Source: Chloroflexota bacterium
GTDB lineage: Bacteria; Chloroflexota; UBA5177
Length of the DNA stretch: 64,000 nt
Direction: 5' to 3'
NCBI GenBank assembly: GCA_051002135.1
Contig: JBPCMQ010000039.1
Location: 25,510-89,509 of the forward strand
Part shown: piece after piece, positions 82 to 32,987 of the stretch
Position numbering within the stretch: position 1 is the stretch's first letter
Layout of the letters: every line of letters starts with the position of its first letter
Notes under the pieces: generated by a model
The model's input: the letters and a program-made list of their open reading frames with translations, nothing else
Databases searched by the model: none
Told to the model about the DNA's origin: nothing
Made by a program: the position numbers and the translations under genes

Positions 82-480
82 CTACTCCACGACTTCGAGG
101 AACGCCTCGCGGATCCCGCCGTCCTTAATGCGAAACGCCTTGATCTCAGGATCAGGCTCGGCCGCCAGGGATACGATGATGTACAGGGCGTCCGGATAGT
201 GGGCGAGACCGACGTCCGTCTGTGAGGGATACGCGCTGGTCCGTGTGTGCGAGTGAAAGATCGCGCCCAGATCCCAGCCGGCGTCGTCGATCTCCATGAT
301 TGCCCGCAGCTGTTCCTGTGGATCCATGTGATAAAAGACCGGGCTGGGGTCCGAGTTCTCGATGCAGTACACTTTGACCGCTCTATCCTCCGTGGATGCC
401 ACGAGTCCACACGCCTCGTTGGGAAAGCCCGCGCGGGCGTGCTCGATCATCTCGTGCACGTGCTGACGCGAGATCACCAT
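82..480 (-). CDS. mec: JAMM/MPN+ (Mov34) metallopeptidase, Mec+-like CysO-cysteine hydrolase. The track ORF 82..531 is trimmed to the MVISRQH start.
   Basis: HSHTRTSAYPSQTD matches the JAMM HxH..S..D zinc motif. EACG near the N-terminus is typical of Mec+. The start ATG at 480 overlaps the cysM stop TGA at 474-476 (ATGGTGA). Last gene of the cysO-cysM operon. Confidence 0.75.
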   Translation of the reverse strand: MVISRQHVHEMIEHARAGFPNEACGLVASTEDRAVKVYCIENSDPSPVFYHMDPQEQLRAIMEIDDAGWDLGAIFHSHTRTSAYPSQTDVGLAHYPDALYIIVSLAAEPDPEIKAFRIKDGGIREAFLEVVE

Positions 481-1433
481 AGAAACGCGTGGTCCAGACT
501 GTCTTCCAGGGTGGTGATGGGCGCGGTCCACAGGTCTCCGCTGAGATACTTCCAGCCGCCATCGGGGAGCAGAGCGACAACTACGCCGCTGTCGAGGCTG
601 CCGGCATAACGCAGAGCCGCGGCAACAATGGCCCCCGAGGAAACTCCGGCGAAAATGCCTTCCTCCGCCGCCAGACGCCGCATCATCACAACGGAGTCAA
701 CGCTGGTAATCAGCAGTTTGGCGTCCAGGATCGAGGGATCGAAAATTGGAGGGACGAAGCCCTCGTCAAGGCTGCGCAGGCCCTGCACGAGATCTCCGGG
801 CAGTGGCTCGGCCGCGACGATTTCGACGTCCGATCTCATCTCTTTCAGGTACCTGCCGGCGCCAGTGAGAGTGCCGCCGGTTCCCAGTCCTGCCACGAAC
901 ACCGTTATATCGGGTACATCGCGCAGAATTTCAGGTCCGGTCGTCTCGTAGTGAGCGGTTGGATTCGCAAGATTTCCGTACTGGTTGAGAATCCAGTAGT
1001 GCTCGTGCTTGTCCAGCTCCTGCGCCACTTCTATCGACCCGTTGGTGCCCTTGGCGGCGGGGGACTCGACGATTTCGGCGCCGAAGATCTGCAGCAGCTT
1101 TCGCCGTTCGGGGGTGACGTTTTGCGGCATGACCGCCACAACGCGGTAGCCCTTGACACGCCCCAACATGGCAAGAGCGATTCCGGTATTGCCGCTTGTG
1201 GGCTCGAGCAAGATATAGTCGGCCGATTCAGCTCGTCTCTCGTACTCCGCTATCAAGTACTTTGCGACGCGGTCTTTGACGCTGCCACTGGGATTCGCAC
1301 CTTCCAGCTTGGCGAAGAGCCGTACATTGGGGTTTCGATTCAGTCGCCGCAACTCGACGACCGGTGTATTACCGATGGCGCCCAGGATGCTGCTGTGCGC
1401 CTCGTGTTCAACTAACGGTGAGGCTGCGCTCAC
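474..1433 (-). CDS. cysM: PLP-dependent cysteine synthase, CysM-type (likely O-phosphoserine/CysO-thiocarboxylate dependent)
   Basis: 319 aa. SVKDR lysine motif, TSGNTG and GLGTGGT glycine loops of the tryptophan-synthase-beta family. GTG start at 1433 preceded by GGGAGAGGG. Sits between cysO and mec as in the mycobacterial mec-cysO-cysM system. Confidence 0.85.
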   Translation of the reverse strand: MSAASPLVEHEAHSSILGAIGNTPVVELRRLNRNPNVRLFAKLEGANPSGSVKDRVAKYLIAEYERRAESADYILLEPTSGNTGIALAMLGRVKGYRVVAVMPQNVTPERRKLLQIFGAEIVESPAAKGTNGSIEVAQELDKHEHYWILNQYGNLANPTAHYETTGPEILRDVPDITVFVAGLGTGGTLTGAGRYLKEMRSDVEIVAAEPLPGDLVQGLRSLDEGFVPPIFDPSILDAKLLITSVDSVVMMRRLAAEEGIFAGVSSGAIVAAALRYAGSLDSGVVVALLPDGGWKYLSGDLWTAPITTLEDSLDHAFLW

Positions 1434-1452
1434 GCCCTCTCCCTATGCGTGG

Positions 1453-1728
1453 TCACGGGTTGCCACCAGCCATCGCCGGCAAGATGATCACGGTGTCCTG
1501 CGGACCGACCGCCGTGTCCAGCTTGTTCAGATATTGGATGTCCTGGTCATTCACATACACGTTCACAAATCGGCGGAGCTCCTGATTCTCGTAGAGCTGG
1601 TCGTCGAGAGCGGGGAACTGATCTACGAGGCTCCGCAGGACCTCGCCTACGGTTCCACCATCCGCTTCAACGTCGCGTGAGCCGCCCGTTTGCTTTCGCA
1701 GTACAGGCGGTATGCGTACTCTGCTCAC
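1453..1728 (-). CDS. cysO: ThiS/MoaD-family sulfur carrier protein, CysO-like, ending ...AMAGG-NP (two residues after the GG)
   Basis: 91 aa beta-grasp-size protein with a C-terminal GG followed by NP before the stop. Sits between the E1 gene and cysM. The extension past GG implies JAMM processing. Confidence 0.75.
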   Translation of the reverse strand: MSRVRIPPVLRKQTGGSRDVEADGGTVGEVLRSLVDQFPALDDQLYENQELRRFVNVYVNDQDIQYLNKLDTAVGPQDTVIILPAMAGGNP

Positions 1729-1762
1729 CTTTCTATCCTTCCGTGACGGTTCGCGTCGTGTC

Positions 1763-2839
1763 CTACTGCCCCGCGAGCGCGGCGACGTCCGCCGGCGAGC
1801 GTGCCGGCGCCGATCCGCAGACCGGGCAGTCCGGATCGCGACGCAGCCTGAGCTCCATGAATGACGAGCTCAGGGCATCGAACATCAGCAGACGGCCGAC
1901 GAGTGTCTCTCCGATGCCAACGATTAACTTGATCACTTCGTTTGCCTGCAATAGGCCCATTATTCCGGGAAGCACGCCCAGAACTCCCGCTTCGCCTCAG
2001 GTGGGCGCGAGCGACGGTGGTGGTGGCTCTGGATAGACGCAACGGTAACACGGCCCGGCTCCCGCCACGAAAGTCGACACCTGGCCGTCGAAGCTCAGGA
2101 TGCTTGCCGAAACATTGGGCGTGCCCTGTCGCACGCATATCTCATTCAACAGATAGCGGGTATCAAAGTTATCGACGCCGTCGATGACGATGTCGTACCC
2201 CGCGAGGATGTCGTCGGCGTTACTCGCGTCAAGGCGGGTCTCATATCCGACAACCTTGACGTCCGGATTGAGCGCCGCAATTGACTGCCTCGCAGATTCC
2301 ACCTTGGACATCCCGACGCGTTCGGTCGTGTGTATGACCTGGCGTTGTAGATTGCTTTCCTCCACCACATCGGCGTCGACTATGCCAAGTGTTCCCACGC
2401 CCGCCGCCGCCAGATAGAGAGCCGAAGGCGAGCCAAGCCCGCCCACGCCTACGAGGAGAACTTTGGCGTCGAGAAGCTTGAACTGGCCTTCTTCGCCGAC
2501 CTCCGGGATGAGCACGTGGCGGCTGTAACGATGCATCTGGTCGGATGAGAGCGTGCGCGGAATCACAAAGGGCTGTCCAGCATCCTTCCAACCCGTGAAG
2601 CCGCCCCGCAAAGAGCGAACATCCTCGTACCCCATGTCCTGTAAAGTTCTGGCGGCCAGGACCGATCTGGTTCCTCCAGCACAGTACAACAGGACAGGCA
2701 TTCGCTTGTCCGGCACCGCATTTTCAATGCGCAGCTCGAGGTACCCTCGTGGCACGTGGATCGCGCCGGGGATGTGGCCCTCGTCCCATTCGATTTTTTC
2801 GCGCACGTCAATGAGACGCGACGCCTCCGTTTTCCCCAC
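1763..2839 (-). CDS. Rhodanese–ThiF/MoeB E1 fusion (MoeZ-like sulfur-carrier adenylyltransferase/sulfurtransferase). An in-frame TGA at 1997-1999 sits at the conserved active-site Cys position, making it a candidate selenocysteine. The true 5' end probably lies upstream of 2839.
   Basis: Track ORFs 1997..2839 and 1763..1975 are in the same frame, separated by one TGA. The rhodanese active-site loop is CAGGTRS. E1 motifs present: LLVGVGGLGS, the CYRC...CPVCG zinc site, and PEPPPP-SLAPT-[TGA]-GEAGVLGVLPGIMG aligning with MoeB PTCAEAGV / ThiF NCRTAGV. The rhodanese sequence TIEELTLPTFDELFSAAKRNVEEVSVAQASDD continues in frame upstream to a TAG at 2945-2947. Confidence 0.6.
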
Positions 2840-3005
2840 ATCGTCGGACGCCTGGGCAACGGAAACCTCTTCGACATTCCTTTTAGCAGCGGAAAACAGC
2901 TCGTCAAAGGTGGGCAGGGTCAGTTCCTCGATTGTGCATATGACCTATTGTAGCCAAAGCTGAAAGGGCGGCCTATGCCACCTGTTTTTCGTACCGGCCT
3001 CACTG

Positions 3006-3416: not shown

Positions 3417-4307
3417 CTACGCGTGTGCCGCTGCTGCGAGCAGCGCTCCGACGGCTGTTACGGCAACGGCCGGTGCTGCCAGGTGGAAGACGGTGAGGCG
3501 GGCCCTCCTGCTTGTCAGAGCAAAGCGTCGAAGGCTGGCGATGCGGATGGTTAGAGCGACACCAAAGGAATCCAGGAGGATGCCTGGTACCGACCTCCAG
3601 ACAAGACCGGTGGCAAGGGCTCCGATCGTGGCGCAGGCCAGACCGACGACAATAGCGGAGAAGGTGAGCGAAGGACCGAGCCGAGCCGCGGGACCAAGTT
3701 GATTGGTTTCGCGGTCGCTCTCAATATCGGGAAAGGACTGAGCCAGGTGTGCCACCAGGACCAGGAGGAGGCCGGCGGGATAGGCGAGCAGGAAAGCCGA
3801 AGTGAGGTGGCCTGCGATAACCCAGATCCAGGTGACGAGGGACATAAAGCCGACCAGATAGCTCACCCAACTGAAAGGCGTGGGCTTCAGCCAGAGGTCG
3901 TACAGCAGGCCGGCGGCCGTGCCTAGAACGGTCAATGCGAAGGCTACAGTGCCGAAGGTCGCGGCCATTGGTACCAGCGCTACCATGCTGGCAAGTGAAA
4001 TGAACAGGGCAGTTCCGGGTAAGATGACCCCCGACGGGATTGGTTTTTCGGGTTGGACACGCCGATCCAGGTCTCGATCCAGATAGTCGTTGAGCGACCC
4101 AACGGATATCTGGCTCAAAAGGACGACGAGCGCGGCGCGAGTGAGAAAAAAAAGACCTGGGTTGCCTCGATGAGCCACGACGACGAGAAGTGCCGAGGTG
4201 AGGACAACGGCGCCGACGGGAAAGGGATGGACGAGACGCACCGCTCCCACGACCCGGCGCATTCCACCCGCAGGACCGGGACGAGCAGGCAGCGCATCGT
4301 TTTGCAC
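3417..4307 (-). CDS. UbiA-family polyprenyltransferase (integral membrane)
   Basis: Multiple TM segments and the NDYLDRDLDRRVQPEKPIPSG aspartate-rich UbiA motif. Confidence 0.7.
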   Translation of the reverse strand: MQNDALPARPGPAGGMRRVVGAVRLVHPFPVGAVVLTSALLVVVAHRGNPGLFFLTRAALVVLLSQISVGSLNDYLDRDLDRRVQPEKPIPSGVILPGTALFISLASMVALVPMAATFGTVAFALTVLGTAAGLLYDLWLKPTPFSWVSYLVGFMSLVTWIWVIAGHLTSAFLLAYPAGLLLVLVAHLAQSFPDIESDRETNQLGPAARLGPSLTFSAIVVGLACATIGALATGLVWRSVPGILLDSFGVALTIRIASLRRFALTSRRARLTVFHLAAPAVAVTAVGALLAAAAHA

Positions 4308-4353
4308 CCTTCAGCTCCGCACTCAGGGACGTTCCGGTGGGCGATAGGGTCGG

Positions 4354-5592
4354 TCAGACGGGAGATGCCTCCAGTGGCTTTTCCGCCGCCTTACGGAGCT
4401 GCTGGACTTTATCAAGGCGCTCCCAAGGCACGTCGAGGTCATCCCGCCCAAAGTGACCGTAGGCGGCGGTGCGCCGGTACAAAGGCCTCCGCAAGCCCAA
4501 ATTGCGGATGATGGACGCCGGACGGAAGTCGAAGTGACTCGCGATGAGCTCCAGAATCTCGTCGTCCGGCACGTGACCCGTCCCAAACGTCTCGATCATG
4601 ATAGACATCGGGTGCGCCACGCCTATGGCATACGAGACTTGGATTTCGAGTCTGTCTGCCAACCCCGCGGCCACGATGTTCTTGGCCACGTACCGCGTGT
4701 AATACGCCGCGGACCGATCGACCTTTGTCGGATCCTTTCCGGAAAACGAACCCCCACCGTGGCGAGCCATTCCGCCGTACGTGTCGACGATGATCTTCCG
4801 GCCCGTCAATCCCGCATCGCCCTGAGGACCCCCAATGACAAAATTGCCCGTGGGGTTCACGAAGTAGTGGGTATCGGCGTCTAACAAAATCGGATCCACG
4901 GCGTCAATGACGGGCTTGATGACGTGCTCGATGATATCTCGCTCTATCTCACCGTGATCAAGAGTGTCACTGTGCTGAGACGAAACCACGACGGCGTCGA
5001 CCCGTCGCGGGCGCCCGAATCGATACTCCACTGTCACTTGAGCCTTGCCGTCAGGCCGCAGATAGTTGAGAGGCCCCTCTCGCCGAACGTGTGACAGCCG
5101 TTGGCACACACGGTGTGCGAGAGAGATCGGCAACGGCATATATTCGGGGGTCTCATGGCACGCAAAGCCAATCATCATACCCTGGTCGCCGGCTCCGATC
5201 TCGTCCACCGCCTGGTCGGACTCTTTCGTTTCAAGCGAGTGATCCACCCCCACCGCGATATCTGGTGACTGCCCTTTCAGTGCCACGGAGACACCGCAGG
5301 TGTGCGCGTCGAACCCGTACTTCGCGCGATCATATCCGATCCCAGCAATTGTGCGACGCGCGATGGCGGCGGCGTCGTATGACGCGCTCGTCGTGATTTC
5401 TCCTAGTACCAGCACGAATCCGGTGGTCGCTACCGTCTCACACGCGACCCGGGCATAGGGATCCTGCTCGATTATCGCATCCAGGATTGCGTCCGAAACT
5501 TGGTCGCAAATCTTGTCCGGGTGTCCCTCCGTGACGGATTCTGACGTAAAGAACAATTGTGGCGACTGCATGAAAGTCGTCGACGTGGTCAT
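4354..5592 (-). CDS. metK: S-adenosylmethionine synthetase; the track ORF extends to 5673 but the likely start is MTTSTTF
   Basis: Canonical MetK sequence: [26 protein letters not shown], the GGGAFSGKD P-loop and DRSAAY. Confidence 0.9.
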
Positions 5593-5765
5593 CGATTCTC
5601 CTCTAGTTGGCCCTCGCTGATTCCCTAGAGTATACGCGGGTCTGATTGCCCGCTCATAGAGACACGTGCTCAAGGCCTTGTTTGTTCAAAGTGCTGCATG
5701 TATGGTGGAGCACATGTTCAGCATTTTCGAGCGCGTCTGGCTGTGGTGAGGCCGATACGCAGCCT

Positions 5766-7511
5766 ATGAGTAACGAGGGTCCTTCCGGATCGCCGCACCG
5801 GCCGGACAGAGGCAGCCCGCCTCGCCGCTCGGACAGAGGACTTCCGCGTCGCCGGGCTTCCTCGTCTCTCGAAGATCTAGGCGAAGTTGAGCGTCGTCCG
5901 CGAACGGCCAGGCGTGCCGGCCTGCGCAACTCATCTGGAACAAGCGTCCTTGCCGCCCTGATACTCCTGACGCTGGTAGGCGCAACTGCCTTCGCCATAT
6001 TCCTCCACGGGCGCTCCGACCTTTCGGCGGCTCGACCTCCAGCTCCGGCCGCTTACGCCTTCGTCTTTGTCGTCGATGGGATGGCGGCAGCCGACGTTTC
6101 GTCGATTACCACCCCAAACATCGCTCACCTGGCCAAGCAGGGCATCTCTTACCCCAGTGCATGGGTGGGCCAGGCGGAGTCCTCTTCCCTCGCGTCGAAC
6201 GCGAGCATCGGGACCGGGCTTTTTCCCAGTAATGACGGTGTCGTCGGTTGGCAATGGTCCTCGCCGCACAGTGCCCAGGTAGTAGCGCCTGCGAGTCCGA
6301 CGCAAGTGCAGCTCGGCAGTCTCGACCAGGTGATGCAGTCCCACTCGCGAGACTCTCTCTCGTCGCGCGTTAAGTCACGCTACCCCAACGATCACGTCGT
6401 GTCCATCAGTGGAAGTCAGTGTGGGGTCGCCGATGCGGCCGGTACGTGGACGGCGGACTACGTCCTGTGCCCGCGCCGGCAGAGCAAAGAATGGCTACCA
6501 GGAAGCGTTACCGGTCACGCCCCTCCACTCGCGCTACTGAACAGCCCTGGGCTGGCTGTACCGGTGCTTCGCGGACGGGCTCTCGGCGCCGTGACGGAGA
6601 GGTGGCAGGTCGGCACTCAGGATGACTGGGTTGCTCGCTGCGCCCTCGCCGTGCTGGCGCGCGAGAAACCCCGGCTGACGATCCTGAATTTTCCAGAGAT
6701 TGAGCAGGTTTTACGGTTCGCTCCGTCGCGGAATGACGGTGACATTCGCCGGGGGCTACTGCGCGGTGTCGATCGCGACATCGGCCGCGTCGTGGCCGCC
6801 ACCCGTGTCAACGGCACGTTCGACCGTAGCGTCTTCGTCATAACCTCCGACCAGGCTCTCGCCTCCGTTGCCCAGCGCTTGCAAAAGTCGCGGATCGCGG
6901 ATGCCATTCTGGGCGCTGGAGGGGAACAGACGTATCTCGCCTCCGATATGTCCGCTGCAGCAGGCGTGCGAGACCCACTTCAAGTGGCGCCGGTGGCAGC
7001 GGCCCTGAGGAGCGTCGATCGCGGCAACATCGACATTGTCTTCAGGAAAGTGAGGACTCACGGACGCGAGGGCTACCGTGCGGAGGCGCTCCGATCCCTG
7101 TCCAACGGCTTCATTGCCGCCGAAAGCGACGTCGTGGGGACTATGGCATCCGTTACCTCTCCGGACATTGTCCTCGTTTATTCCCCCGGGGTGTCCACTT
7201 TTGGAGTCCATGCGTCCCGCCTTCCTGAACAGAACGGGGGAATGGGTATGCAGTGGCCGAATCTGCATATCCCGTTCATTCTGGCCGGACATGGCATCGT
7301 GCAGGGCGCGACATCCAGATATCCCGCGCGTCTGGTCGACCTCGCACCGACACTGACTGCCCTGATGCATCTCGCGACCGGCAGTCCGGACGGTCTTGTC
7401 CTGGCGGATGCACTGTACCAGCCGCCGGCCGGAAGCGTAATGCGGCAGGAGAATGAGTCTCGGCACTCCTCACCCCTTGTCCGCGCGCTACAGGAGCGTA
7501 GCGGGCACTAG
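5766..7511 (+). CDS. Membrane-anchored alkaline-phosphatase-superfamily protein (type I phosphodiesterase/nucleotide pyrophosphatase-like). Start taken at MSNEGPSG; track ORF starts 5646.
   Basis: Single N-terminal TM helix, then FVFVVDGMAAAD, typical of AlkP-core metal-site proteins. About 580 aa. Confidence 0.55.
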   Translation: MSNEGPSGSPHRPDRGSPPRRSDRGLPRRRASSSLEDLGEVERRPRTARRAGLRNSSGTSVLAALILLTLVGATAFAIFLHGRSDLSAARPPAPAAYAFVFVVDGMAAADVSSITTPNIAHLAKQGISYPSAWVGQAESSSLASNASIGTGLFPSNDGVVGWQWSSPHSAQVVAPASPTQVQLGSLDQVMQSHSRDSLSSRVKSRYPNDHVVSISGSQCGVADAAGTWTADYVLCPRRQSKEWLPGSVTGHAPPLALLNSPGLAVPVLRGRALGAVTERWQVGTQDDWVARCALAVLAREKPRLTILNFPEIEQVLRFAPSRNDGDIRRGLLRGVDRDIGRVVAATRVNGTFDRSVFVITSDQALASVAQRLQKSRIADAILGAGGEQTYLASDMSAAAGVRDPLQVAPVAAALRSVDRGNIDIVFRKVRTHGREGYRAEALRSLSNGFIAAESDVVGTMASVTSPDIVLVYSPGVSTFGVHASRLPEQNGGMGMQWPNLHIPFILAGHGIVQGATSRYPARLVDLAPTLTALMHLATGSPDGLVLADALYQPPAGSVMRQENESRHSSPLVRALQERSGH

Positions 7512-7513
7512 AT

Positions 7514-8701
7514 CTAGCCTGCCTCGCTCTCGCGCGGCAGGTCGAGTAGCCGGGGAGCCGCGCGTTCCAACGTCTCCATCCGCTTGGGAAAGGCGAATCG
7601 GACGAAATTGCTGCCGGCTCCCCGCGCTTTGTAGAAGCTGCTGCCGGGCACGACGGCAACCCCTCGCTCGGCAACCAACCACTGGGCGAAGTGCACGTCG
7701 TCCCGGAAGCCGAAGGGGCGGATGTCCACCATCGTGTAGTAGGCGCCGAGAGGTACGATGGGCTCCAGGCCTGTCTTTCGGAGAACATCGATCAGGTAGT
7801 CGCGCCGTTGTTGGTAGTCGTCCCGCAGCTTCTGGTAGTACGCTTCGGGCCAGCACACGGCGGCGGCACCGGCCGCCTGGAGGGGAGCGGCTGCTCCCAC
7901 CGTGAGAAAGTCGTGAACCTTGCGGATCGCGTCCGTAAGCTGAGCAGGGGCAATGACATACCCGACGCGCCAACCCGTGACGCTGTACGTCTTCGAGAGA
8001 CCGTTGACAATAACCGTGCGTTCCCTCATGTTGGGCAAAGTGGCCGGAGAGACGTGCAGGGCGCCGTCGTACAGGATATGTTCGTAAATCTCATCGGTAA
8101 ACATCAGGCAATTCCATTGCTCGCAAAGTTCGGCAATGGCTAGGAGCTCGTCTCGGGTGAAGACCTTTCCTGTGGGATTGTTCGGAGTGTTGATGACAAT
8201 CGCGCGAGTCCGAGGACCAAAGGCGGCTGACAGGACGTCGCGGTCCAGTTTCCAATCGGGCGCCAGGAGCGGCACGTAGCGAGGAATGGCTCCGCAGAGC
8301 GCGCAGTCCGGACCATAGTTTCCATAAAAGGGCTCGAAAATGACCGCCTCGTCGCCCGGGTTGAGAAGCCCGAGCATAACGCTCGCCATGCCTTCGGTGG
8401 CACCACAGGTCACCGTTATCTCGCGCTCGGGGTCAACGTCTATACCCAGGAAATGGCGAGTCTTCCAGGCGATGCCGTCCCGCAGATTCTTGGCGCCCCA
8501 CGTGATTGCGTACTGATTGACGTTATCTTGTATGGCGCGACAGGCGGCATCCTTGAGCTCCCGCGGCGCCGAAAAGTCGGGGAAGCCCTGGGCCAGATTA
8601 ATCCCGTCGGTTGAATGCAGGTGGTTGACAAGGCGTGTCATCTCCCTGATGACCGATTCGGTGAAGCTTGTGGTGCGCTCTGCACCCGTGAAGCTCTCCA
8701 T
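7514..8701 (-). CDS. PLP-dependent aminotransferase class I (YbdL/kynurenine-aminotransferase-like). Start at MESFTGAE; track ORF extends to 8854.
   Basis: INLAQGFPDF, NPTGKV, and SKTYSVTGWRVGY with the PLP lysine. Confidence 0.8.
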   Translation of the reverse strand: MESFTGAERTTSFTESVIREMTRLVNHLHSTDGINLAQGFPDFSAPRELKDAACRAIQDNVNQYAITWGAKNLRDGIAWKTRHFLGIDVDPEREITVTCGATEGMASVMLGLLNPGDEAVIFEPFYGNYGPDCALCGAIPRYVPLLAPDWKLDRDVLSAAFGPRTRAIVINTPNNPTGKVFTRDELLAIAELCEQWNCLMFTDEIYEHILYDGALHVSPATLPNMRERTVIVNGLSKTYSVTGWRVGYVIAPAQLTDAIRKVHDFLTVGAAAPLQAAGAAAVCWPEAYYQKLRDDYQQRRDYLIDVLRKTGLEPIVPLGAYYTMVDIRPFGFRDDVHFAQWLVAERGVAVVPGSSFYKARGAGSNFVRFAFPKRMETLERAAPRLLDLPRESEAG

Positions 8702-8705
8702 GGCC

Positions 8706-9572
8706 TCAGACTCCCTGAGTTTCGAACAGCCCCAATTGACGTGCTCGCTGAGACCCGGTCCACCGCAGTGACGGCCGATCTCGAAGTGCGACCGCGACCC
8801 TGACCGTCCCCATACCCGCGCGCTGCAACGTACGGCGCGCCGCCTCGAGGGCAAGCGAGGGACGGTTGTTTTCGTGACTCAGGTGCGCCAACCACACGTC
8901 CACGTGATCGTCTCGAAGCTGTCGTACGAGAACCGCGGCGGCCTGCGCATTCGACAAATGGCCTCTGGGTCCGCCGATGCGGCGACGCAGGTGGACGGGA
9001 TAGCGCCCGCTGTGCAGCATCTGCGGGTCATGATTTGACTCCAAGATCACGAGGTCGGCGAGTCGCACCATCTCACACACGTTGTTTGTGACCACACCGA
9101 GGTCGGTTGCGATGACAACCGTCTTCCCGCCATGACGTACCAGGAAACCCACCGGACGCGCGGCGTCGTGGCTGACCAAGAAAGTGGTAACCTCCACATC
9201 CCCCAGCCTGACGGGCTTGCCGACCGGCAGCACCTCAGCCAGCGCTAGGTTATCAAGGTGTGCGGCCCGAAGCGCCTGTTCATTGGCCAGGACCGGCACC
9301 GAGTAGTCGCTCGCCAGCTCGCGCGCCGCCAGGCAATGATCCCGATGTTCATGGCTGATCAGGACGGCGGATATCGCGCCGATGCACATGTCCTCGCACT
9401 GGAGCGCTCGTTCCAGCTTCGGGATCCGCAATCCCGCGTCGAACAGCAGGGTGACTCTGTCCGTCCTCAAGACGTACGCGTTGCCGGAGCTTCCGCTGGC
9501 CAGCGCTCGAAGGAGCAACAATATCGGTCTCCTGCCCACGGAGTATGTGCAGCTGATGCTAGCAGCGCGCAT
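8706..9572 (-). CDS. MBL-fold metallo-hydrolase
   Basis: LISHEHRDH (HxHxDH) metallo-beta-lactamase motif, plus GSSGNA near the N-terminus. Confidence 0.65.
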   Translation of the reverse strand: MRAASISCTYSVGRRPILLLLRALASGSSGNAYVLRTDRVTLLFDAGLRIPKLERALQCEDMCIGAISAVLISHEHRDHCLAARELASDYSVPVLANEQALRAAHLDNLALAEVLPVGKPVRLGDVEVTTFLVSHDAARPVGFLVRHGGKTVVIATDLGVVTNNVCEMVRLADLVILESNHDPQMLHSGRYPVHLRRRIGGPRGHLSNAQAAAVLVRQLRDDHVDVWLAHLSHENNRPSLALEAARRTLQRAGMGTVRVAVALRDRPSLRWTGSQRARQLGLFETQGV

Positions 9573-15677: not shown

Positions 15678-17354
15678 ATGTCACCTATCCCCTCTGCGCA
15701 CGCCGTAGGGTTTCGGAAACCCATCGCGTTGGGCTCCTGGCCCGAGGTTGGAGCCCTCACCCCCTTCTTTCTGGGGACGTTCTTCCTCGCGGTGTATCTC
15801 CTCACCGGCTCCAGCGACCTCTTGCACAATGGGGACACCGATCTCCGCTATCAAACCACGCAGGCTCTGGTCGAGCACCATCGGTTGTGGATAGATCGGC
15901 CGATGTGGACGGACCTACGGATGCACCGGGGTAATGGCGGGCATCTGTACGCCTTCTATGGGCCGGGTCAAGTGCTTCTCATGGTGCCCCTCTACGTACT
16001 GGGAAAGGCCTTTGCGCATCACCTGTCTTTGCCGTACGACATAACCACGCTGTACGCCTGCCGGTCCCTGGATCTGTTTCTCGGCGCCCTGCTCGCCGTG
16101 GTCTTTTATCTGTTCGCCCGATCGGCTGGGTACACGGAGCGAATCTCGACGGTCCTAACACTCATCTTCGGCCTCGCGACAGTCTCCTGGCCGGACGCCC
16201 AGAGCGCCCTGGAACAGACGCAGGTGGATCTGTGTCTGCTCGTCTCGGTGTACGCGGCCTGGCGCTACGTACTCGGAGACTTCGCGCGCCGGAGGTGGCT
16301 CGCTGCCGCGTCCGCGGCCGCCGGCGCCGGACTCCTGACCCGGTACGACTTCGCTCTATACCTGCCCATCATCCTGGCCCTTCCCCTCGCTTGGCGATGG
16401 CGTCGTCAGGCTGGTTCGGGGTTGCTGGCGGACGTCTTTGTCTATGTCGCGGGCCTCGTTCCGTGGGTGCTGGCGGTTGCCGCATGGAACGACGCGCGTT
16501 TCGGCGATCCGCTGGATACGGGACTGCGCGAGAAGACGCTGGGCGAGCCTTTTCTGGCAGGTCTGGCAGGTCTCCTGGTCAGCCCGGGTAAAGGTCTCAT
16601 ATGGTACCTTCCCCTCGTCCTCGTCCTTCCCTGGGTCGTCCCGCGCTTCTATGCGCGCTGTCGTCCTCTTTGTCTACTTAGCGCTTCGCTGGTCGTGGTG
16701 CCGGTACTCTTCTATAGCAACCTTGTGTATTGGCACGGCGATCCGGCGTGGGGGCCGCGGTATCTCTACACCGCGGTCCCGTATCTCATCCTCCCCTTGG
16801 GAGAGCTTCTAGGTCGGTGGCGCACGGCAGGGATGGGCCTGCGAACAGCTTTTCTGGCCCTGCTTGTCGTCAGCGCCGGCCTTCAATTAGCCGCCGTGTC
16901 GGTCACGCAATGGCGGTTTTGGTACCGGCTCCAGGCGATGGAAGAGCACACGCGGCAACCATTTCGGTGGGGCGCACCGTACTATCACTACTACTGGACG
17001 CCTCGACAGTCACCGATTCTCATTCAGATCGACGACGTCTATCAGATTGCCCGCCTCACGTTCCTGGGCGACACCAAGTACCGCTTCACAACGCGGCCAA
17101 CCGCCTACACGGTGCAACGCCATCCGTCCAATCCGGCCGATAAGTACCCGATCAATAACTTTGCCTACTGGTGGGTAGATCCTAGACATCCGCTCCTGGG
17201 CTTGCGAACACGCCTCGGTATAGCTGCTCTGCTGCTCGCAGCGGCGCTTGCATCCCTGGCCGCCGCACTCTCCTGCGCCTGGCTGGCCCGCAAACCCCCC
17301 GGGGAGTCTGTGGTGCACGCCCGCCTCATCACCGCTGGCTCGCGCGCGCTTTAA
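15678..17354 (+). CDS. Large polytopic membrane protein, GT-C-fold glycosyltransferase-like (ArnT/PMT/GT87-like)
   Basis: 558 aa with at least 10 predicted TM helices. Acidic first loop (NGDTDLRY). Aromatic-rich C-terminal region. No soluble catalytic domain recognised. Confidence 0.4.
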   Translation: MSPIPSAHAVGFRKPIALGSWPEVGALTPFFLGTFFLAVYLLTGSSDLLHNGDTDLRYQTTQALVEHHRLWIDRPMWTDLRMHRGNGGHLYAFYGPGQVLLMVPLYVLGKAFAHHLSLPYDITTLYACRSLDLFLGALLAVVFYLFARSAGYTERISTVLTLIFGLATVSWPDAQSALEQTQVDLCLLVSVYAAWRYVLGDFARRRWLAAASAAAGAGLLTRYDFALYLPIILALPLAWRWRRQAGSGLLADVFVYVAGLVPWVLAVAAWNDARFGDPLDTGLREKTLGEPFLAGLAGLLVSPGKGLIWYLPLVLVLPWVVPRFYARCRPLCLLSASLVVVPVLFYSNLVYWHGDPAWGPRYLYTAVPYLILPLGELLGRWRTAGMGLRTAFLALLVVSAGLQLAAVSVTQWRFWYRLQAMEEHTRQPFRWGAPYYHYYWTPRQSPILIQIDDVYQIARLTFLGDTKYRFTTRPTAYTVQRHPSNPADKYPINNFAYWWVDPRHPLLGLRTRLGIAALLLAAALASLAAALSCAWLARKPPGESVVHARLITAGSRAL

Positions 17355-19418: not shown

Positions 19419-20475
19419 CTACCTCGTTGAGATGAGGGGCGACTCCTCCGCCTGTTCAATGCGCTGCGACAGCGTTCTATTGGTACGCTCCAGCTCCGCG
19501 AGCTTGCGTCGCTTGTCGACCAGATTGCCGCGCACCATAGCCTGATCGAGGATCGATCGCGACTGCTGACACTGGCGCTCCAGATCCTCGACTTCGAGGG
19601 CAAGGCGCCCGATGCCTTCTTGATTGCGCGTCACTTCGGCCCTCCAGCTCTCGAGCGGTGGAACTTGCTGCGGAGGTTGAGAGCTCTCACGATCGGCTGC
19701 TCGCCGCTCTTCATGCCGGGCTTCATGGCGCCGGCTAGTCTCCGCCTCGCGCCGCACGGTCTCTGCCTCACGCCGCACGGTCTCTGCCTCGCGCCGCGCT
19801 GTCTCCGCATCGCGGCGCATCCCGTCCGCCTCGGCTTTCATAGCGTTCACACTGCTCTGCTTGGCCTCGCTGGTCTTGAGCGCATCAAAGAAACGGGACA
19901 CCGCATTGTGCACCCTGCTTCCCTGGCCTTGCTCCAACTGCTGCCGAGCTTCGTCGAGTATGCCTCGAAGGAAGGTCTCATTCTCATTCCAGAGACCGTT
20001 AAGTCGGTCCCAGGCCATGTTATTGGCATCTCGCCACGACTCCCACACCGCCTGTCGATCGGCCGGAACCAGTGATGCGGCCCCGTCGAATCGCTCACGC
20101 AAACCGTCCAAATCTCGCCTCAGTACGCGAAGCTCGCGAGGTCCGGAGGTGCTCTCGATGCGGTTCCTCAGCTCGGTGATGGATCCGAGTAGCTCGTCCT
20201 TGCGTCCGCTCGACTGTGCATATGCTCCCTCCTGAGACTTATAGGCTCGGGAACCGATTTGACGGAGCCGCCGCTCGAGATCCAGCTTGGCGTCGAGCTT
20301 GATCGCCGGCGCAGTTCTGACCCTGTCCTTCAGATCGCGAAAGCGGGGCCAGAAGGTGCGGAACGTCGGGTCGGCAGCCTCGGTCAAGAATCGTTGCTCC
20401 AGCTCATCGACCTCGCGGTCGAGAGCTGCCGCAACCTCGTCAGCGCGAAGCTGCCATTGTTGCCAATCTTCCATC
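19419..20475 (-). CDS. Coiled-coil protein with a tandem heptad repeat (REAETVR x3); function unknown. Start at MEDWQQWQ.
   Basis: Long E/R/L-rich heptad-like sequence throughout. The repeat is also visible at DNA level. Confidence 0.5.
19738..19812. repeat. About 3.5 copies of a 21-bp tandem repeat (cgccgcacggtctctgcctc[a/g]) inside the coiled-coil CDS
   Basis: Direct reading of 19750-19770 and 19771-19791 shows near-identical units, with degenerate flanking copies. Encodes RREAETV repeats. Confidence 0.8.
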
Positions 20476-20754
20476 TGGGCGACTCCTGACTGAGGCGGCG
20501 GCCGGTCGACATACATGTACTGGCACGGCGACACTGGCCTTGCAGTTGTCAAAAGAGAATGGGCTTGCGGTCCCACCTGGCTCTATGCGTCACCGCGCAC
20601 GACCAAGCCCAGAAGGCACCAGGAACAGCCGGGTTTCCTCCCGCTCTCTATCGTAGCACGAGCCTCGAACGCCTCGAAGTCTTACGTGTGCCGCGACGGT
20701 ACTGAATCTACGGATGGCGGCTCGGTGTCGAGCCCTGTATCCCGGGAAGGAATG

Positions 20755-26159: not shown

Positions 26160-28778
26160 TCAGACAGCCGCGACCAGCTGCGGCTCGGACACGTCCGATC
26201 GAAATGTCAGAGCGTCGTCCTCGCGATCCACAACCACCGTGCTGCCCTCTCGGAACCGGCCCTGAAGCACTTCCATCGCCAACGGGTCGAGGATGCTGCG
26301 CTGGATGGCGCGTTTGAGGGGCCTCGCTCCGTACGCCGGATCCCATCCCTTGTCGGCAATCAGCTCCTTGGCCGCGTCCGTAAGCCTGATGGCGAGCTTG
26401 CGGTCGCCGAGACGCTTTTGTAAGCCCGTGACCTGAATTCCCACAATCGTCTTGATCTGGTCCTGCGTCAGACCTCTGAAGATGATGACCTCGTCGATGC
26501 GATTCAGGAACTCCGGACGAAAATGCTCGCCCAGGATGGACATCACGGAATCCCTGACGCGCTCGTAGTTCGCCGGGCCAATGTCCTGAATCAGCTGACC
26601 TCCGATGTTGGAGGTCATGATGATGACTGTGTTCTTGAAGTCAACCACGCGACCCTGGCCGTCCGTGAGCCGGCCATCGTCGAGGATCTGCAAGAGGACG
26701 TTGAAGACGTCAGGCGCCGCTTTCTCGATCTCGTCCAGCAGGAGCACCGAGTACGGCCTGCGCCGGACGGCTTCCGTCAGTTGTCCACCCTCCTCGTATC
26801 CCACATAACCAGGTGGTGCGCCGATCAGTCTGGACACGCTGTGTTTCTCCATATACTCGGACATATCGATGCGGATCATCGCGTGCTCGTCGTCGAACAG
26901 AAAGTCCGCCAGCGCTCGGGCCAGCTCGGTCTTCCCGACACCGGTCGGACCGAGAAAGAGGAAGCTCCCCAACGGGTGATTGGGGTCCTGCAATCCGGCG
27001 CGAGCCCGCCGTACCGCATTGGAGACCGCCTGCACTGCTTCGCCCTGGCCCACGACGCGATGATGAAGTCGCTCCTCCATGTTGATCAGCTTCTGGACCT
27101 CGCCTTCGAGGAGCTTGCTCACTGGAATACCGGTCCACTTGGCCACCACGTCGGCGATGTCGTCCTCGCCGACCTCCTCCTTGAGGATCTGGCCGTGCTT
27201 CTGCATGTCCGAGAGCCTGGCCTCGCTGTTCCGCCGTCTGCTCTCCAGCTCGACGAGCGTGCCATAGCGGAGCTCGGCGGCTCGACCCAGGTCCGTCGCA
27301 CGCTCCGCGTGTTCAATCTCGGCCTTGGTCTGTTCTATCTGTTCTCGGACCGATCGCGTCTCCGCGATAGCCTCCTTTTCCGCTTCCCACTGCGCCTTGA
27401 GCTCATCGGCACGGCCGCGAAGCTCGGCAATCTCTTTGAGGATGCGTTCGTGGCGCTCACGCGTGGCCTCGTCCTGCTCCTTCGAGAGCGCCGTGCTCTC
27501 GATCTGGAGCTGCATGATGCGTCTCTCGATCTCGTCGATCTCATACGGCATCGAGTCGATCTCCATCCGCAGGCGGCTGGCCGATTCGTCCACGAGGTCG
27601 ATGGCCTTGTCGGGAAGGAACCGGTCTCCGATGTAGCGGTGCGAGAGGACGGCGGCCGCGACCAGCGCGGCATCCGTGATTTTGACGCCGTGGTGCACCT
27701 CGTACCTCTCCTTGAGCCCGCGAAGGATACTGATCGTGTCCTCCACCGTTGGCTCGGCGACAAAAACGGGCTGGAAACGACGCTCCAGAGCTGCATCCTT
27801 CTCGATGTGCTTTCGGTACTCGTCGAGCGTGGTCGCGCCCACCATCCGCAGCTCGCCCCGCGCCAGCAACGGCTTCAACATGTTGCCGGCGTCCATGGCG
27901 CCTTCCGCTGCTCCCGCTCCCACGACGGTGTGAAGCTCGTCGACAAAGAGGACGATGCCGCCCTGCGCGTCCTGAACTTCTTTCAGGGCCGCTTTGAGGC
28001 GCTCCTCGAACTCTCCCCGGTACTTCGCGCCTGCGACCATTGCCGCCAGATCGAGCGCGATCACGCGTTTGCCTTTCAGAGGCTCGGGGACGTCCTCGCG
28101 CACGATGCGCTGCGCCAACCCTTCGACAATCGCCGTCTTGCCCACACCGGGCTCGCCAATGAGCACCGGATTGTTCTTGGTACGTCGGGACAGCACCTGG
28201 ATCACACGCCGAATTTCTTCGTCGCGGCCAATGACCGGGTCGAGCTTGCCACGGCGCGCGATCTCCGTCAGATCGCGGCCGTAGCGTTCCAGCGCCTGAT
28301 ACGTGTCCTCCGGATTCTTGGTGGTGACCCGTTGGCCGCCCCGAATCGTGGCGAGCGCGGAGAGCACGTTCTCGCGGGTCACGCCCAATTCACGAATCAT
28401 GCGGGCCACCGTGCTCTGGTCCCGGTTGTCGACCAGAGCGAGCAGTAGGTGTTCTACCGCGACGTACTCGTCCTTGAGATCGCCCATGATCTCGTGCGCG
28501 CGGACCAACGTCGCCCGCAGCTCCGGCGATATCGCCGGCTGAGAAAGGCCACCGTACGCCGTCGCCAGTCGGTCGAGAAGGGAATGGTTTCGCTGTGTGA
28601 TCGACGCCACGTTCACGCCGGCACGTGCCAGGATAGCCGTGGCTATACCCTCGGGCTGACTCAGGAGAGCCTCCAGAAGATGCTCCTCTTCAACCTGCGT
28701 ATTGCCCCGCTCGGCTGCCAGCTCCTGGGCCCGAGTCAGCGCTTGCTGCGCCTTTTCCGTAAATCGCTGAATATTCAT
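26160..28778 (-). CDS. clpB: ATP-dependent chaperone ClpB. Start at [11 protein letters not shown].
   Basis: Two AAA+ modules: GEPGVGKT and GPTGVGKTE Walker A motifs. Coiled-coil middle domain. Confidence 0.9.
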
Positions 28779-28844
28779 AGATACCCCCACGTAATTGCTG
28801 CCGGTGCTCGGAACCGGGAGTTTGCCGAGCGCCCGCCTCAATGT

Positions 28845-29237
28845 CTACGAAGACAGGTCCTGCGAGCGGTCCTCGCCCGCCTGCAAGCGCATGATGATGT
28901 CTTTTAGTCGCCAAACTTCGGCGTCGTGTTCGGTTTTGAGAGACTCGATAGTCTCCCCCGCCTGCCTTCGTAGATGCTCCATTTGCTCACGCATGTGGAG
29001 GATGACCTCGACGCCGGCCAGGTTCACGCCAAGCTCGTCCACGAGGCGCCGGATTTGCTGAATGCGCTCAATGTCGTCTAGGGAGAAGTACCGTATCTCC
29101 CCTTTGCCTCGCTGCGGCTCGATCAGGCCGAGACGCTCGTAGTGGCGCAGAGTCTGTTGGTGCACATTGACGATCTCGGCGGCGACGGAGATGGTGTATC
29201 GCCGGAGCTCGCGTCCGCGTCCCTCACTCTGTTTCAT
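28845..29237 (-). CDS. hspR: MerR-family heat-shock repressor HspR
   Basis: YTISVAAEIVNVHQQTLRHYERLGLIEP MerR helix-turn-helix. Position after dnaJ as in hspR operons. Confidence 0.8.
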   Translation of the reverse strand: MKQSEGRGRELRRYTISVAAEIVNVHQQTLRHYERLGLIEPQRGKGEIRYFSLDDIERIQQIRRLVDELGVNLAGVEVILHMREQMEHLRRQAGETIESLKTEHDAEVWRLKDIIMRLQAGEDRSQDLSS

Positions 29238-29255
29238 CTCTTCCCCCCGTCGCAC

Positions 29256-30302
29256 TCACACGCCGGCTTGAGCTAACTGCTGGAATAGATCTCGCTGCCG
29301 CTCGTCCAGCGTGGTGGGAAGGGTGGCGTTTACCCTTACATAAAGATCGCCATGGCCCTGTCCCTTCAGGTGGGGCATTCCCTGACCCGTAAGTCGCAGT
29401 GTCCGCCCGTTCTGACTATTTGCCGGCACGCGCATCGTCCCGCTTCCGGCGATGGTGGGCACTCTGACGTCACCTCCGAGTACAAGAGTGGTGACCGGCG
29501 CAGTCACGTCCGCGAAAAGATCGTCGCCCTCACGCTTGAATCGCGCATCGGGCAACACGTGGACGAGGAGATAGAGATCGCCGGACTTGCTGCCAGGTCC
29601 AACGCCGGGATTACCTTCACCCGCCACCCTGATACGCGATCCATCCTTCACACCCGGGGGTACCTGGACGGCCAGGCGGCGCTGCTTGGGGACGGATCCA
29701 GCGCCCTGACAGGTAGGGCACAGTTGGTTGTCCTGTACTCCCGTTCCATGGCAAGTGGGGCAAATCTGCGCGGTCTGAAGGGTCAGGGACAGCTCGACGC
29801 CCTCGTACGCTTGCCGAAGCGTGACATCGATGGGCTGCTCCACGTCGGCGCCGCCATGGCCGACCATCGTCTGCTCCGCTCGCTTGTTGCGGCCGCGTCC
29901 GAAGATGGAGCCAAGGTCGAAATCGAAGCCGCCACCTCCTCCGCCTGGCTGAGTCGCGGTCGCCGTACGCTGCCCGAATAACGTCTCGAAGAAGTCGCTG
30001 AAGTCCCCAGCGGTTTGTCCTCCACTGGATGTGTAGGTGCGGCCATACTGTCCGGAGCCGGCCTGCTGTTGGAAGCGCCTTTCCCAATCCGGCCCCAGGG
30101 TGTCGTACTGCTTGCGCTTTTCCTGATCGGTCAAGACCGCCTGAGCCTCATTTATCTCTTTGAATCTAGCCTCCGCCGAGGCATCGCCCGGATTGACGTC
30201 GGGGTGGTATTTGCGCGCGAGCTTGCGGTACGCGCTTTTGATCTCCTTGTCGGACGCCTTTCTATCGACGCCGAGGATCTTGTAGTAGTCTTTATATTCC
30301 AT
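29256..30302 (-). CDS. dnaJ: chaperone DnaJ
   Basis: J-domain YKKLARKYHPD, G/F region, and four CxxCxGxG zinc-finger repeats. Confidence 0.9.
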   Translation of the reverse strand: MEYKDYYKILGVDRKASDKEIKSAYRKLARKYHPDVNPGDASAEARFKEINEAQAVLTDQEKRKQYDTLGPDWERRFQQQAGSGQYGRTYTSSGGQTAGDFSDFFETLFGQRTATATQPGGGGGGFDFDLGSIFGRGRNKRAEQTMVGHGGADVEQPIDVTLRQAYEGVELSLTLQTAQICPTCHGTGVQDNQLCPTCQGAGSVPKQRRLAVQVPPGVKDGSRIRVAGEGNPGVGPGSKSGDLYLLVHVLPDARFKREGDDLFADVTAPVTTLVLGGDVRVPTIAGSGTMRVPANSQNGRTLRLTGQGMPHLKGQGHGDLYVRVNATLPTTLDERQRDLFQQLAQAGV

Positions 30303-30380
30303 GTCGTCAAGAACCCTCGCCAACCTGTGATGGGAGAGGAGATCGGGAGAGCTCGGCTGCCCTGTCGATCTCCCTCTTGC

Positions 30381-30992
30381 CTATTCGCCGCCCACGCTAA
30401 CGATCACCTGAGCCGGTCGCAGGATGTTGTCTCCAAGGGTGTAGCCCTTGCGGACCTCCTGCACGACGGTATGGTCCGGGACACGTGGATCGTCGACAGT
30501 CTGAATCGCTTCTTCCGTGCGTGGGTCGAATGGCTTGCCCTGGGTGTCGATAGCTTGCACGCCTTCTTGCGTAAGAACCTGATCCAGCTGGTACTGGGTC
30601 AGTCGAACGCCCTCGATTATGCTCTCACCGCTGGACTCGCTCGCTCCCCCAAATTGGAGAGCCCGTTCGATGTTGTCACGCACCGCCAGAAGCTTCTTCA
30701 GCAGGTCGTTTTTCGACCGCAGGGCCTCGTCGGCGTAGCGCTGCTCGACGCGGCGCTTGAAGTTATCCATGTCGGCCCGCGCCCGGAGATATTTGTCTTG
30801 GTTGGCCGCGGCCTCGTCCTGAGCTGAGCGGAGTTCTGCCTGCAGCTGTGCCACGTTCGCCGGAGCGTCACGCTCCTCTGGCTGCATGTCTGCCTTCGAG
30901 GCGTGTGATTCGCTCACCTGTTCGTCTGTCTGCTCGAACATTTCGTACTCCCGTGTGGGTCCGGGAGCGGCGTCGTGCCGCTCCTCACCCAT
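30381..30992 (-). CDS. grpE: Nucleotide exchange factor GrpE. Start likely MGEERHD; track start 31037 would overlap dnaK.
   Basis: GrpE coiled-coil plus C-terminal beta domain (DPRTEEAIQ...). Confidence 0.85.
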   Translation of the reverse strand: MGEERHDAAPGPTREYEMFEQTDEQVSESHASKADMQPEERDAPANVAQLQAELRSAQDEAAANQDKYLRARADMDNFKRRVEQRYADEALRSKNDLLKKLLAVRDNIERALQFGGASESSGESIIEGVRLTQYQLDQVLTQEGVQAIDTQGKPFDPRTEEAIQTVDDPRVPDHTVVQEVRKGYTLGDNILRPAQVIVSVGGE

Positions 30993-30996
30993 TCGT

Positions 30997-32826: not shown

Positions 32827-32879
32827 TCTTGACTCCTTAATGATTCAGGATTGCACTTTCCTGCGTGTGATCCTGTCAT

Positions 32880-32908
32880 AGTTTAAATATTGAGTCTGAT
32901 CTTGTCAA
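32880..32908 (-). promoter_or_regulatory. Candidate sigma70-type promoter of the dnaK operon: -35 TTGACA, 17-nt spacer, -10 TAAACT. It overlaps a HAIR-like HspR operator half-site pair (TTGACA-N7-ACTCAA).
   Basis: Minus-strand sequence reads AGTTGACAAGATCAGACTCAATATTTAAACT about 50 nt upstream of the dnaK ATG. Compared with the HAIR consensus CTTGAGT-N7-ACTCAAG: right half perfect, left half 4/6. Confidence 0.4.
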
Positions 32909-32987
32909 CTTTTCGTGTGAGAAAACGCAGGCGGAGCAAGAAAAGAGGCGGGCCGTTTTGGGGCCCGCCTCGGAGAGACCTATCGCA

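Follow-up and report, generated by a model that had tools for sequence, protein, structure and literature searches.

The locus studied here raises the question of what a compact cluster of four genes in a Chloroflexota bacterium produces, and how it can function when its first gene is interrupted by an in-frame TGA codon. The window, i.e. the whole stretch of DNA that was analysed, comprises 64,000 nucleotides of contig JBPCMQ010000039.1 (assembly GCA_051002135.1, positions 25,510 to 89,509). At positions 82..2917 of its minus strand, four packed genes form an operon for a rhodanese-ThiF activating enzyme (E1), a CysO-like sulfur carrier, a CysM-type sulfhydrylase and a Mec-like JAMM peptidase, in this order. 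From sequence comparison and analogy to characterized systems, we consider it likely that the operon serves protein-thiocarboxylate-dependent cysteine synthesis of the type known from CysO/CysM/Mec of Mycobacterium tuberculosis (PMC3227635), with a carrier trimmed by the JAMM peptidase and an E1 that contains selenocysteine (Sec). The in-frame TGA of the E1 gene very probably encodes this selenocysteine.

The order rhodanese-E1, cysO, cysM, JAMM on the minus strand, which had been read in an initial annotation of the sequence, was borne out by Pfam domain assignments, and the families of the four proteins follow directly from these matches. The E-values were 5.8e-83 for ThiF and 3.9e-21 for Rhodanese in the E1, 8.1e-14 for ThiS in the carrier, 2.1e-70 for PALP in CysM and 8.6e-23 for Prok-JAB in the peptidase. 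The annotated stop-start overlap ATGGTGA between cysM and mec is present: the mec ATG (480..478) lies inside ...CTATGGTGA, and the two frames overlap by 7 nucleotides, as they do in four related loci (L083, L085, L087 and L090; related loci are designated by L numbers). A Shine-Dalgarno sequence of cysM was likewise found by direct reading of the minus strand at 1435..1443; the sequence GGGAGAGGG (1443..1435) places its GGAG core 5 nucleotides ahead of the GTG start. An identical sequence, with both the TGA and the codons for a C-terminal Asn-Pro tail of the carrier, occurs in L001 (GCA_003244175.1, a Chloroflexota metagenome-assembled genome) and in L002 (Logan assembly, SRR33880237). Because TGA and tail are found in two independent assemblies, an assembly artefact is excluded.

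Close relatives were drawn from exact-protein look-ups and a DNA-pattern scan of metagenomes. The order E1-cysO-cysM-mec was observed directly in 7/7 close Sec-type loci with enough sequence, and cysO lies directly 3' of the E1 gene in all 13 informative Sec-type loci at a minimum of 70% identity. Ktedonosporobacter rubrisoli has the gene order of the window together with an E1 of the Cys type. A scan of genome contigs with the E1 listed distant, Cys-type relatives only; among these listed matches, E1, carrier and CysM, usually with the JAMM gene, are clustered in Myxococcota, Gammaproteobacteria, Acidobacteriota, Rhodothermales, Spirochaetota, Armatimonadota, Ktedonobacteria and one Thermoplasmata archaeon. 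The clustering of the activating enzyme that had been pointed out in the initial annotation is therefore real but recurs in many phyla, and a clustered E1 is not unusual.

The E1 gene (1763..2917, minus strand) encodes 384 residues from a CTG start, with an N-terminal rhodanese domain, a C-terminal ThiF/MoeB adenylation domain and Sec at position 307 (Pfam, NCBIfam). The rhodanese domain (2582..2851, minus strand; Pfam, motif reading) carries the active-site loop C79-AGGTRS, with the Cys codon at 2683..2681. Further motifs are GVGGLG at residue 157, CYRC at 290, U at 307 and CPVC at 364. The protein passed the NCBIfam model NF006444 with 551 bits (cut-off 449) and scored 375 bits against NF005902 MoeZ, which is below the cut-off of 647. 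It departs from the MoeZR type of E1 in that the rhodanese is N-terminal and that CYRC and CPVC are both present. Judged by these domains and motifs, it is not a MoeZR orthologue but functionally analogous to MoeZR.

The initial annotation had extended the operon to 2944. The E1 frame is indeed open from this position, but no ATG, GTG or TTG precedes the GTG at 2839. A start at this GTG would shorten the protein by 26 N-terminal residues that relatives conserve; the Pfam match to rhodanese sets in at residue 23. The codon CTG (2917..2915) corresponds to the site where relatives start their conserved N-terminal peptide M-PTFDE(L/I)F with TTG, ATG or GTG. A public gene call on an identical contig gives a 384-residue product from CTG 2917, where read-through of the TGA is deduced from coordinates and length only. 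On this comparison, the E1 appears to start at the CTG.

The third gene (474..1433, minus strand) encodes a CysM-type sulfhydrylase dependent on pyridoxal phosphate (PLP), with 319 residues and a GTG start. Its best solved relative is M. tuberculosis CysM, an O-phosphoserine sulfhydrylase (3DKI, E-value 1.1e-83), with 284 bits; Salmonella CysM reached 233 bits. The identities were 46% to M. tuberculosis CysM versus 44% to E. coli CysM. As these values are nearly equal, a tree was built. In this neighbour-joining tree of 29 sequences, the window CysM and M. tuberculosis CysM fell into one clade with 100% bootstrap support, and 26 CysO-linked CysMs split from E. coli and Salmonella CysM with 71% support. 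The phylogeny that had been suggested in the initial annotation thus groups the enzyme with the O-phosphoserine CysM of M. tuberculosis and not with ordinary O-acetylserine sulfhydrylases. The RxxDEGFVP motif and a C-terminal extension of about 20 residues are common to the window CysM and M. tuberculosis CysM. Arg220 of M. tuberculosis CysM was considered as a marker for O-phosphoserine and rejected; it is present in the window CysM, but E. coli CysM also has Arg, so that the residue does not discriminate.

The carrier gene (1453..1728, minus strand) encodes a CysO-like beta-grasp protein of 91 residues from the ThiS/MoaD family. Among solved proteins, it is most closely related to CysO of Amycolatopsis orientalis (4N6E_B, E-value 1.9e-18) and of M. 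tuberculosis (3DWG_C, 1e-17). An AlphaFold2 model computed with 32 homologues had a mean predicted local distance difference test score (pLDDT) of 88.4. Lack of a ThiS/MoaD fold, which the initial annotation had named as grounds for abandoning its reading, was not observed: the modelled carrier superposes on solved CysO with template modelling (TM) scores of 0.89 to 4N6E_B and 0.86 to 3DWG_C. Residues 88-91, with pLDDT below 50, are the only disordered part of the model. They include the annotated end AMAGG-NP, which was found as ...ILPAMAGGNP followed by the stop codon; the tail codons Asn90-Pro91 after Gly-Gly occupy 1456..1461 (minus strand, direct reading). In the best-scoring 120 carrier homologues the ILPAMAGG core is invariant, 42/120 stop at GG and 78/120 carry non-conserved tails of 1-22 residues. 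In close operons the tails are NP, VA, EATR, DAPASATFNR, A, S, VR, GQ or none. An NP tail is not unusual, and tails are the rule in the carrier family.

The last gene (82..480, minus strand) encodes a Mec-like JAMM/MPN+ zinc peptidase of 132 residues. The translation preserves every position of the JAMM motif E22...H76-x-H78-x7-S86-x2-D89. Among solved structures, the peptidase is related to 2KKS (4.2e-26) and to 5LDA/5LD9, whose chains are named JAMM1 (1e-11). The mycobacterial-type CysO-dependent cysteine pathway proposed in the initial annotation is supported by the fold and sequence of the carrier, the CysM clade and the intact JAMM motif.

The following sequence of steps is proposed. The carrier would be made as a precursor ending in ...AMAGG-Asn-Pro, from which the JAMM peptidase would remove two residues and expose Gly89. 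The ThiF domain of the E1, going by homology, would adenylate Gly89, and Sec307 in the crossover loop would attack the adenylate to give an acyl-selenoester, mirroring the thioester of Cys202 in Uba4. The N-terminal rhodanese, bearing a persulfide on its Cys79, would then resolve the selenoester and yield the carrier thiocarboxylate (carrier-COSH). As in the M. tuberculosis system, CysM would form PLP-aminoacrylate, probably from O-phosphoserine, and add the thiocarboxylate. The carrier-cysteine adduct would undergo an S-to-N acyl shift and be hydrolysed to cysteine and carrier by the same JAMM peptidase, again by comparison with M. tuberculosis.

For the first of these steps there is another explanation. 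The Asn-Pro tail might be removed by a general carboxypeptidase, not be removed or be tolerated by the E1, and the JAMM peptidase would then hydrolyse the carrier-cysteine adduct only. The CysO of M. tuberculosis ends in GG, and Mec is known there only as an adduct hydrolase (PMC3227635). A JAMM gene is retained even in L083 and L115, whose carriers have no residues beyond GG; trimming is then not the sole or primary role of the peptidase, and another peptidase could remove Asn-Pro, which argues against trimming as proposed here. The same retention fits adduct hydrolysis as the core job of the JAMM peptidase and trimming as an additional job. A tolerated tail conflicts with the need of E1 adenylation for a free Gly carboxylate, as established for ThiS, MoaD and ubiquitin-like proteins.

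Gene fusions also bear on the fate of the tail. In L090 (7176..8387), carrier and CysM are fused in frame into a protein of 403 residues with the junction ...LLPAMAGG-ERTLTPSLLETVGDTPLVEL..., and the fusion gene is placed between a Cys-type rhodanese-E1 gene and the JAMM gene. In-frame fusions of carrier and E1 occur in other phyla (L006, L007, L008, L020, L030, L032, L038 and L059); in these, the carrier frame continues for about 390 residues into the E1, e.g. ...SIAGG-...EEIYRYSRHLIMPE... Such fusions are workable only if something cuts after Gly-Gly, and a specific endopeptidase is therefore needed. The JAMM gene adjoins most of the fusion loci, six in number (L090, L006, L008, L020, L030 and L038). 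The two kinds of fusion imply a processing role for JAMM peptidases, with cleavage behind Gly-Gly comparable to that of ubiquitin precursors by deubiquitinases. Other authors have suggested that JAMM proteins trim such tails, QbsD that of QbsE (GG-CF) and CxnF that of CxnE (GG plus 10 residues; PMC5925218). In the window operon, the carrier continues beyond GG, the cluster includes a JAMM gene and the tail is not conserved among orthologues. By analogy, a need to trim the NP tail before activation is plausible. We regard removal by another enzyme or tolerance of the tail as unlikely, although with some weight, and retain trimming by the JAMM peptidase as the proposed first step.

The proteins could also belong to another type of system, in which carrier, E1 and JAMM protein act in ubiquitin-like conjugation of the SAMP/UbaA/JAMM1 or TtuB type, the JAMM protein is a deconjugase and cysteine synthesis is a side use. 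The best NCBIfam matches of carrier and JAMM protein are SAMP1 (57 bits) and desampylase (77 bits), the E1 also matches UbaA (337 bits), SAMP1 structures are among the fold matches of the carrier, and a crossover-loop nucleophile is what conjugating E1s use. However, all three scores stay under the curated cut-offs of 60, 130 and 450 bits that define membership in these families, and solved CysO proteins match the carrier better than SAMPs do. Moreover, every close relative has cysM in between the carrier gene and the JAMM gene, in overlapping or nearly abutting frames. A conjugation system is therefore improbable, and CysO-dependent cysteine synthesis is the preferred function of the operon.

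The E1 frame is broken by the TGA at 1999..1997 (1997..1999 on the minus strand), which is read as Sec307 in the peptide ...SLAPT-U-GEAGVLGVLPGIMGLLQANEVIK. The codon is aligned with an invariant Cys of homologues. The crossover-loop motif could be parsed in 87/98 full-length homologues, and all 87 read ...LAP(S/T/N)-C-xxxGV. At the codon for residue 307, TGC or TGT was found in 73/79 species-representative genomes among the matches listed, the other 6 not being confidently aligned there; at confidently aligned positions, the full-length homologues had no residue other than Cys. Another 21 homologous proteins (75-80% identity) end at exactly the TGA codon with ...LAPT, and the pattern scan of metagenomes yielded 27 loci, each with an in-frame TGA and a conserved continuing frame. 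The pairing of Sec and Cys at position 307 is thereby shown. Sec307 aligns with 'RNC-RTAGV' of E. coli ThiF and with 'TSC-GEAGI' of C. thermophilum Uba4, where the Cys is Cys202. In Uba4, this crossover-loop Cys202 forms a thioester with Urm1, which is then attacked by the rhodanese persulfide (PMC7527816). That the TGA is a true stop in a pseudogene or split gene, and that the operon relies on an E1 encoded elsewhere as M. tuberculosis does on its unlinked MoeZR (PMC3227635), is very improbable: automatic gene callers do split the E1 into 280/306-residue and 70-residue products, but the TGA stands exactly at the catalytic Cys codon and is retained in at least 30 loci (51-100% identity), the 77 codons downstream are 60-91% identical in frame, and both selB and selD are present in the window.

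The selenophosphate synthetase gene selD (35650..36693, minus strand) scored 372.8 bits against TIGR00476 (cut-off 125). Its ATG at 36693 is preceded by an AAGGAGG ribosome-binding site, and an in-frame TGA (36648..36646) lies at the classical position within RSAG-U-AGK, which makes selD itself a selenoprotein gene. The Sec-specific elongation factor SelB is encoded at 46244..48133 (plus strand), about 44 kb from the Sec-E1 gene, with the Pfam domains GTP_EFTU, SelB-wing_2 and SelB-wing_3 and 316.6 bits against TIGR00475 (cut-off 242).

A hairpin resembling a selenocysteine insertion sequence (SECIS) begins 13 nucleotides after the UGA (1962..1984, minus strand). Its 8-bp stem GUUCUGGG/CCCGGAAU closes the loop CGUGCUU, and it is present in the centroid fold. 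All 21 distinct Sec-type sequences have 6-8 contiguous pairs at this place; the variation among them consists of one double change from U-A to C-G, two one-sided changes and one register slip by one base that keeps the stem. Of 25 distinct Sec-type genes, 23 to 25 have GTC CTG GGC GTG at codons +5..+8, with flanking fourfold sites that vary freely; the third positions compared were free in the search pattern or outside it. In 72 Cys-type homologues that encode the same residues, codons +5..+8 use all synonyms. The downstream sequence is thus directly seen to be constrained at the RNA level. As a control, pairing of at least 6 bp was found in 17/46 Cys-type genes encoding GVLGVLPG compared with 21/21 of the Sec type (Fisher 3e-7, a value that ignores relatedness). 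About a third of the Cys-type E1 genes (L003-L090) that encode GVLGVLPG form the same 6-8 bp hairpin. As a speculation, a hairpin already present in the coding sequence may have eased the switch from Cys to Sec.

Several observations weigh against the proposed pathway and its selenoprotein. To some extent the hairpin follows from the codons needed for GVLGVLPG, because the 17 Cys-type genes of the control also pair. The 76 nucleotides that follow the TGA show no exceptional folding stability (z = +1.44, with 190/200 shuffles folding as well); as this folding-energy test was not significant, the comparative evidence was relied on instead. A search of Rfam at gathering thresholds found two tRNAs only and no match to the hairpin region, and neither selA nor tRNA-Sec was found within the 64-kb window. 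A CTG start such as that of the E1 gene is rare. The references in the CysM tree are few, namely one CysK and two enterobacterial CysMs. Arg220 and the similar identities to the two CysMs are uninformative as to O-phosphoserine or O-acetylserine, and sequence does not decide between these substrates. Finally, we infer all chemical steps from what is known of M. tuberculosis, Uba4 and Qbs/Cxn.

The initial annotation had also taken the clustering as added weight for a Sec-containing E1. The Sec-E1 itself is strongly supported, but mainly by evidence other than clustering. A specific association of Sec-E1 with the cysO operon was considered and rejected, as a second Sec clade (51-57% identity) stands alone among unrelated genes. 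The link to cysO-cysM-mec holds for one clade only. Loci of the second clade (L091-L093, L096-L098, L100, L101, L103-L106, L109-L111, L114, L116 and L117) share the motif (L/M)(Y/H)PE.PP..(L/M)APT-U-GEAG and have no cysO, cysM or mec alongside. Their neighbours include genes for a PIG-L deacetylase, MreB, a luciferase-like oxidoreductase and an extracytoplasmic function (ECF) sigma/anti-sigma pair.

A -10-like TACAAT box is located at 2947..2952 (minus strand), about 30 nucleotides upstream of the E1 start; with this box, the operon region spans 82..2952 (minus strand). The hexamer occurs at the same distance ahead of the E1 start in L083, L085 and L087. A strict two-hexamer scan for the sigma-70 consensus gave no site on the minus strand, and the box is for this reason treated as a lead only. 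A terminator consensus scan of the minus strand gave nothing usable. Transcription of the operon probably starts at a promoter immediately ahead of the E1 gene. The neighbourhood further upstream (3417..8854) is syntenic with L001 and L085-L087 and encodes a UbiA prenyltransferase, the S-adenosylmethionine synthetase MetK, a type I phosphodiesterase and a class I/II aminotransferase. At the mec end, an aldehyde dehydrogenase gene is convergent with the operon. Elsewhere in the window, lon, dnaK, grpE, dnaJ, a gene for a MerR/HspR-like regulator and clpB follow each other in a heat-shock block (26160..35441, minus strand). Two open reading frames, 15678..17354 (plus strand, 558 residues) and 19419..20576 (minus strand, 385 residues), have coding-like GC contents by codon position and no Pfam match at E <= 1e-5.

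Compared with known systems, the operon is close in its parts to Mec+/CysO/CysM of M. tuberculosis (Rv1334-Rv1336) with MoeZR (Rv3206c): it shares the beta-grasp carrier with GG, the CysM clade, the JAMM hydrolase and the tight linkage of the three genes. It differs in the order E1-cysO-cysM-mec, with the E1 inside the operon, and in the 2-residue tail of the carrier, whereas M. tuberculosis CysO ends in GG. MoeZR has its rhodanese at the C terminus, unlike the window E1 with its N-terminal rhodanese, both CxxC zinc motifs and Sec at the crossover loop. In the literature, the two CxxC motifs are described as setting MoeZ/MoeZR homologues apart from MoeB/MoeBR (PMC3227635). Extra residues after GG and a clustered JAMM peptidase are likewise found in QbsC/QbsD/QbsE of Pseudomonas fluorescens (thioquinolobactin) and in CxnE/CxnF (chuangxinmycin; PMC5925218). 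These systems, however, feed sulfur insertion into secondary metabolites and not CysM. In the HcyS/HcyD/HcyF/MetY system of Wolinella succinogenes, reportedly the work of Krishnamoorthy and Begley in 2011, HcyS is said to carry one extra Ala after GG. The metalloprotease HcyD is said to trim HcyS-Ala and later to hydrolyse the adduct of carrier and amino acid, a dual role as proposed here, and the product is reportedly homocysteine, made via an O-acetylhomoserine sulfhydrylase. The eukaryotic Uba4/Urm1 system also combines ThiF-type adenylation and rhodanese in one chain, and its Cys202 is the counterpart of Sec307 (PMC7527816). In Uba4 the domain order is reversed, the residue is Cys and not Sec, and the product feeds tRNA thiolation.

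As an ordinary and widely distributed cysteine operon, the locus adds little to these systems, since the pathway, JAMM-trimmed tails and E1 clustering are known or widespread. The new piece is only the operon context of the Sec-E1; the family itself is already catalogued. In the parts of the literature covered, a Sec-containing MoeB has been listed as a selenoprotein family since the Sargasso Sea analysis of 2005 (Zhang, Fomenko and Gladyshev; PMC1088965), and it was still listed in reviews of 2022 and 2026 (PMC13188914). As a tentative proposal, about which we are more doubtful than about the pathway, one cysteine route in this Chloroflexota lineage could be selenium-dependent; the E1 dedicated to CysO would then be a genuine selenoenzyme that binds the carrier through Sec307 as an acyl-selenoester. 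If so, the locus would provide a naturally occurring E1 with Sec in place of Cys for which both the substrate (the carrier) and the product (carrier-COSH and then cysteine) are known and all partners are encoded alongside. It would also give a function to the Sec-MoeB family, which the covered passages list since 2005 only under 'molybdopterin biosynthesis'. Its value is that of a test system: one clade of the uncharacterised Sec-MoeB is tied to a concrete pathway, CysO-dependent cysteine synthesis, Sec is placed at the crossover-loop nucleophile of an E1-like enzyme, and all four proteins are small. The operon thus offers a way to ask if bacterial E1s use the crossover-loop nucleophile in thiocarboxylation, and what advantage selenium brings at this position.

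The window E1 resembles the Sec-MoeB family, as far as the covered passages describe it, in the ThiF/MoeB type, the in-frame UGA paired with Cys and the stem-loop that follows. In the covered passages of the selenoprotein surveys, no link of Sec-MoeB to cysO-cysM-mec or to any other pathway partner was found. The published lists, in those same passages, call Sec-MoeB a molybdopterin-biosynthesis enzyme, whereas the clade of the window E1 heads a cysO-cysM-mec operon, and the position of one Sec-MoeB clade as the first gene of this operon points to cysteine synthesis.

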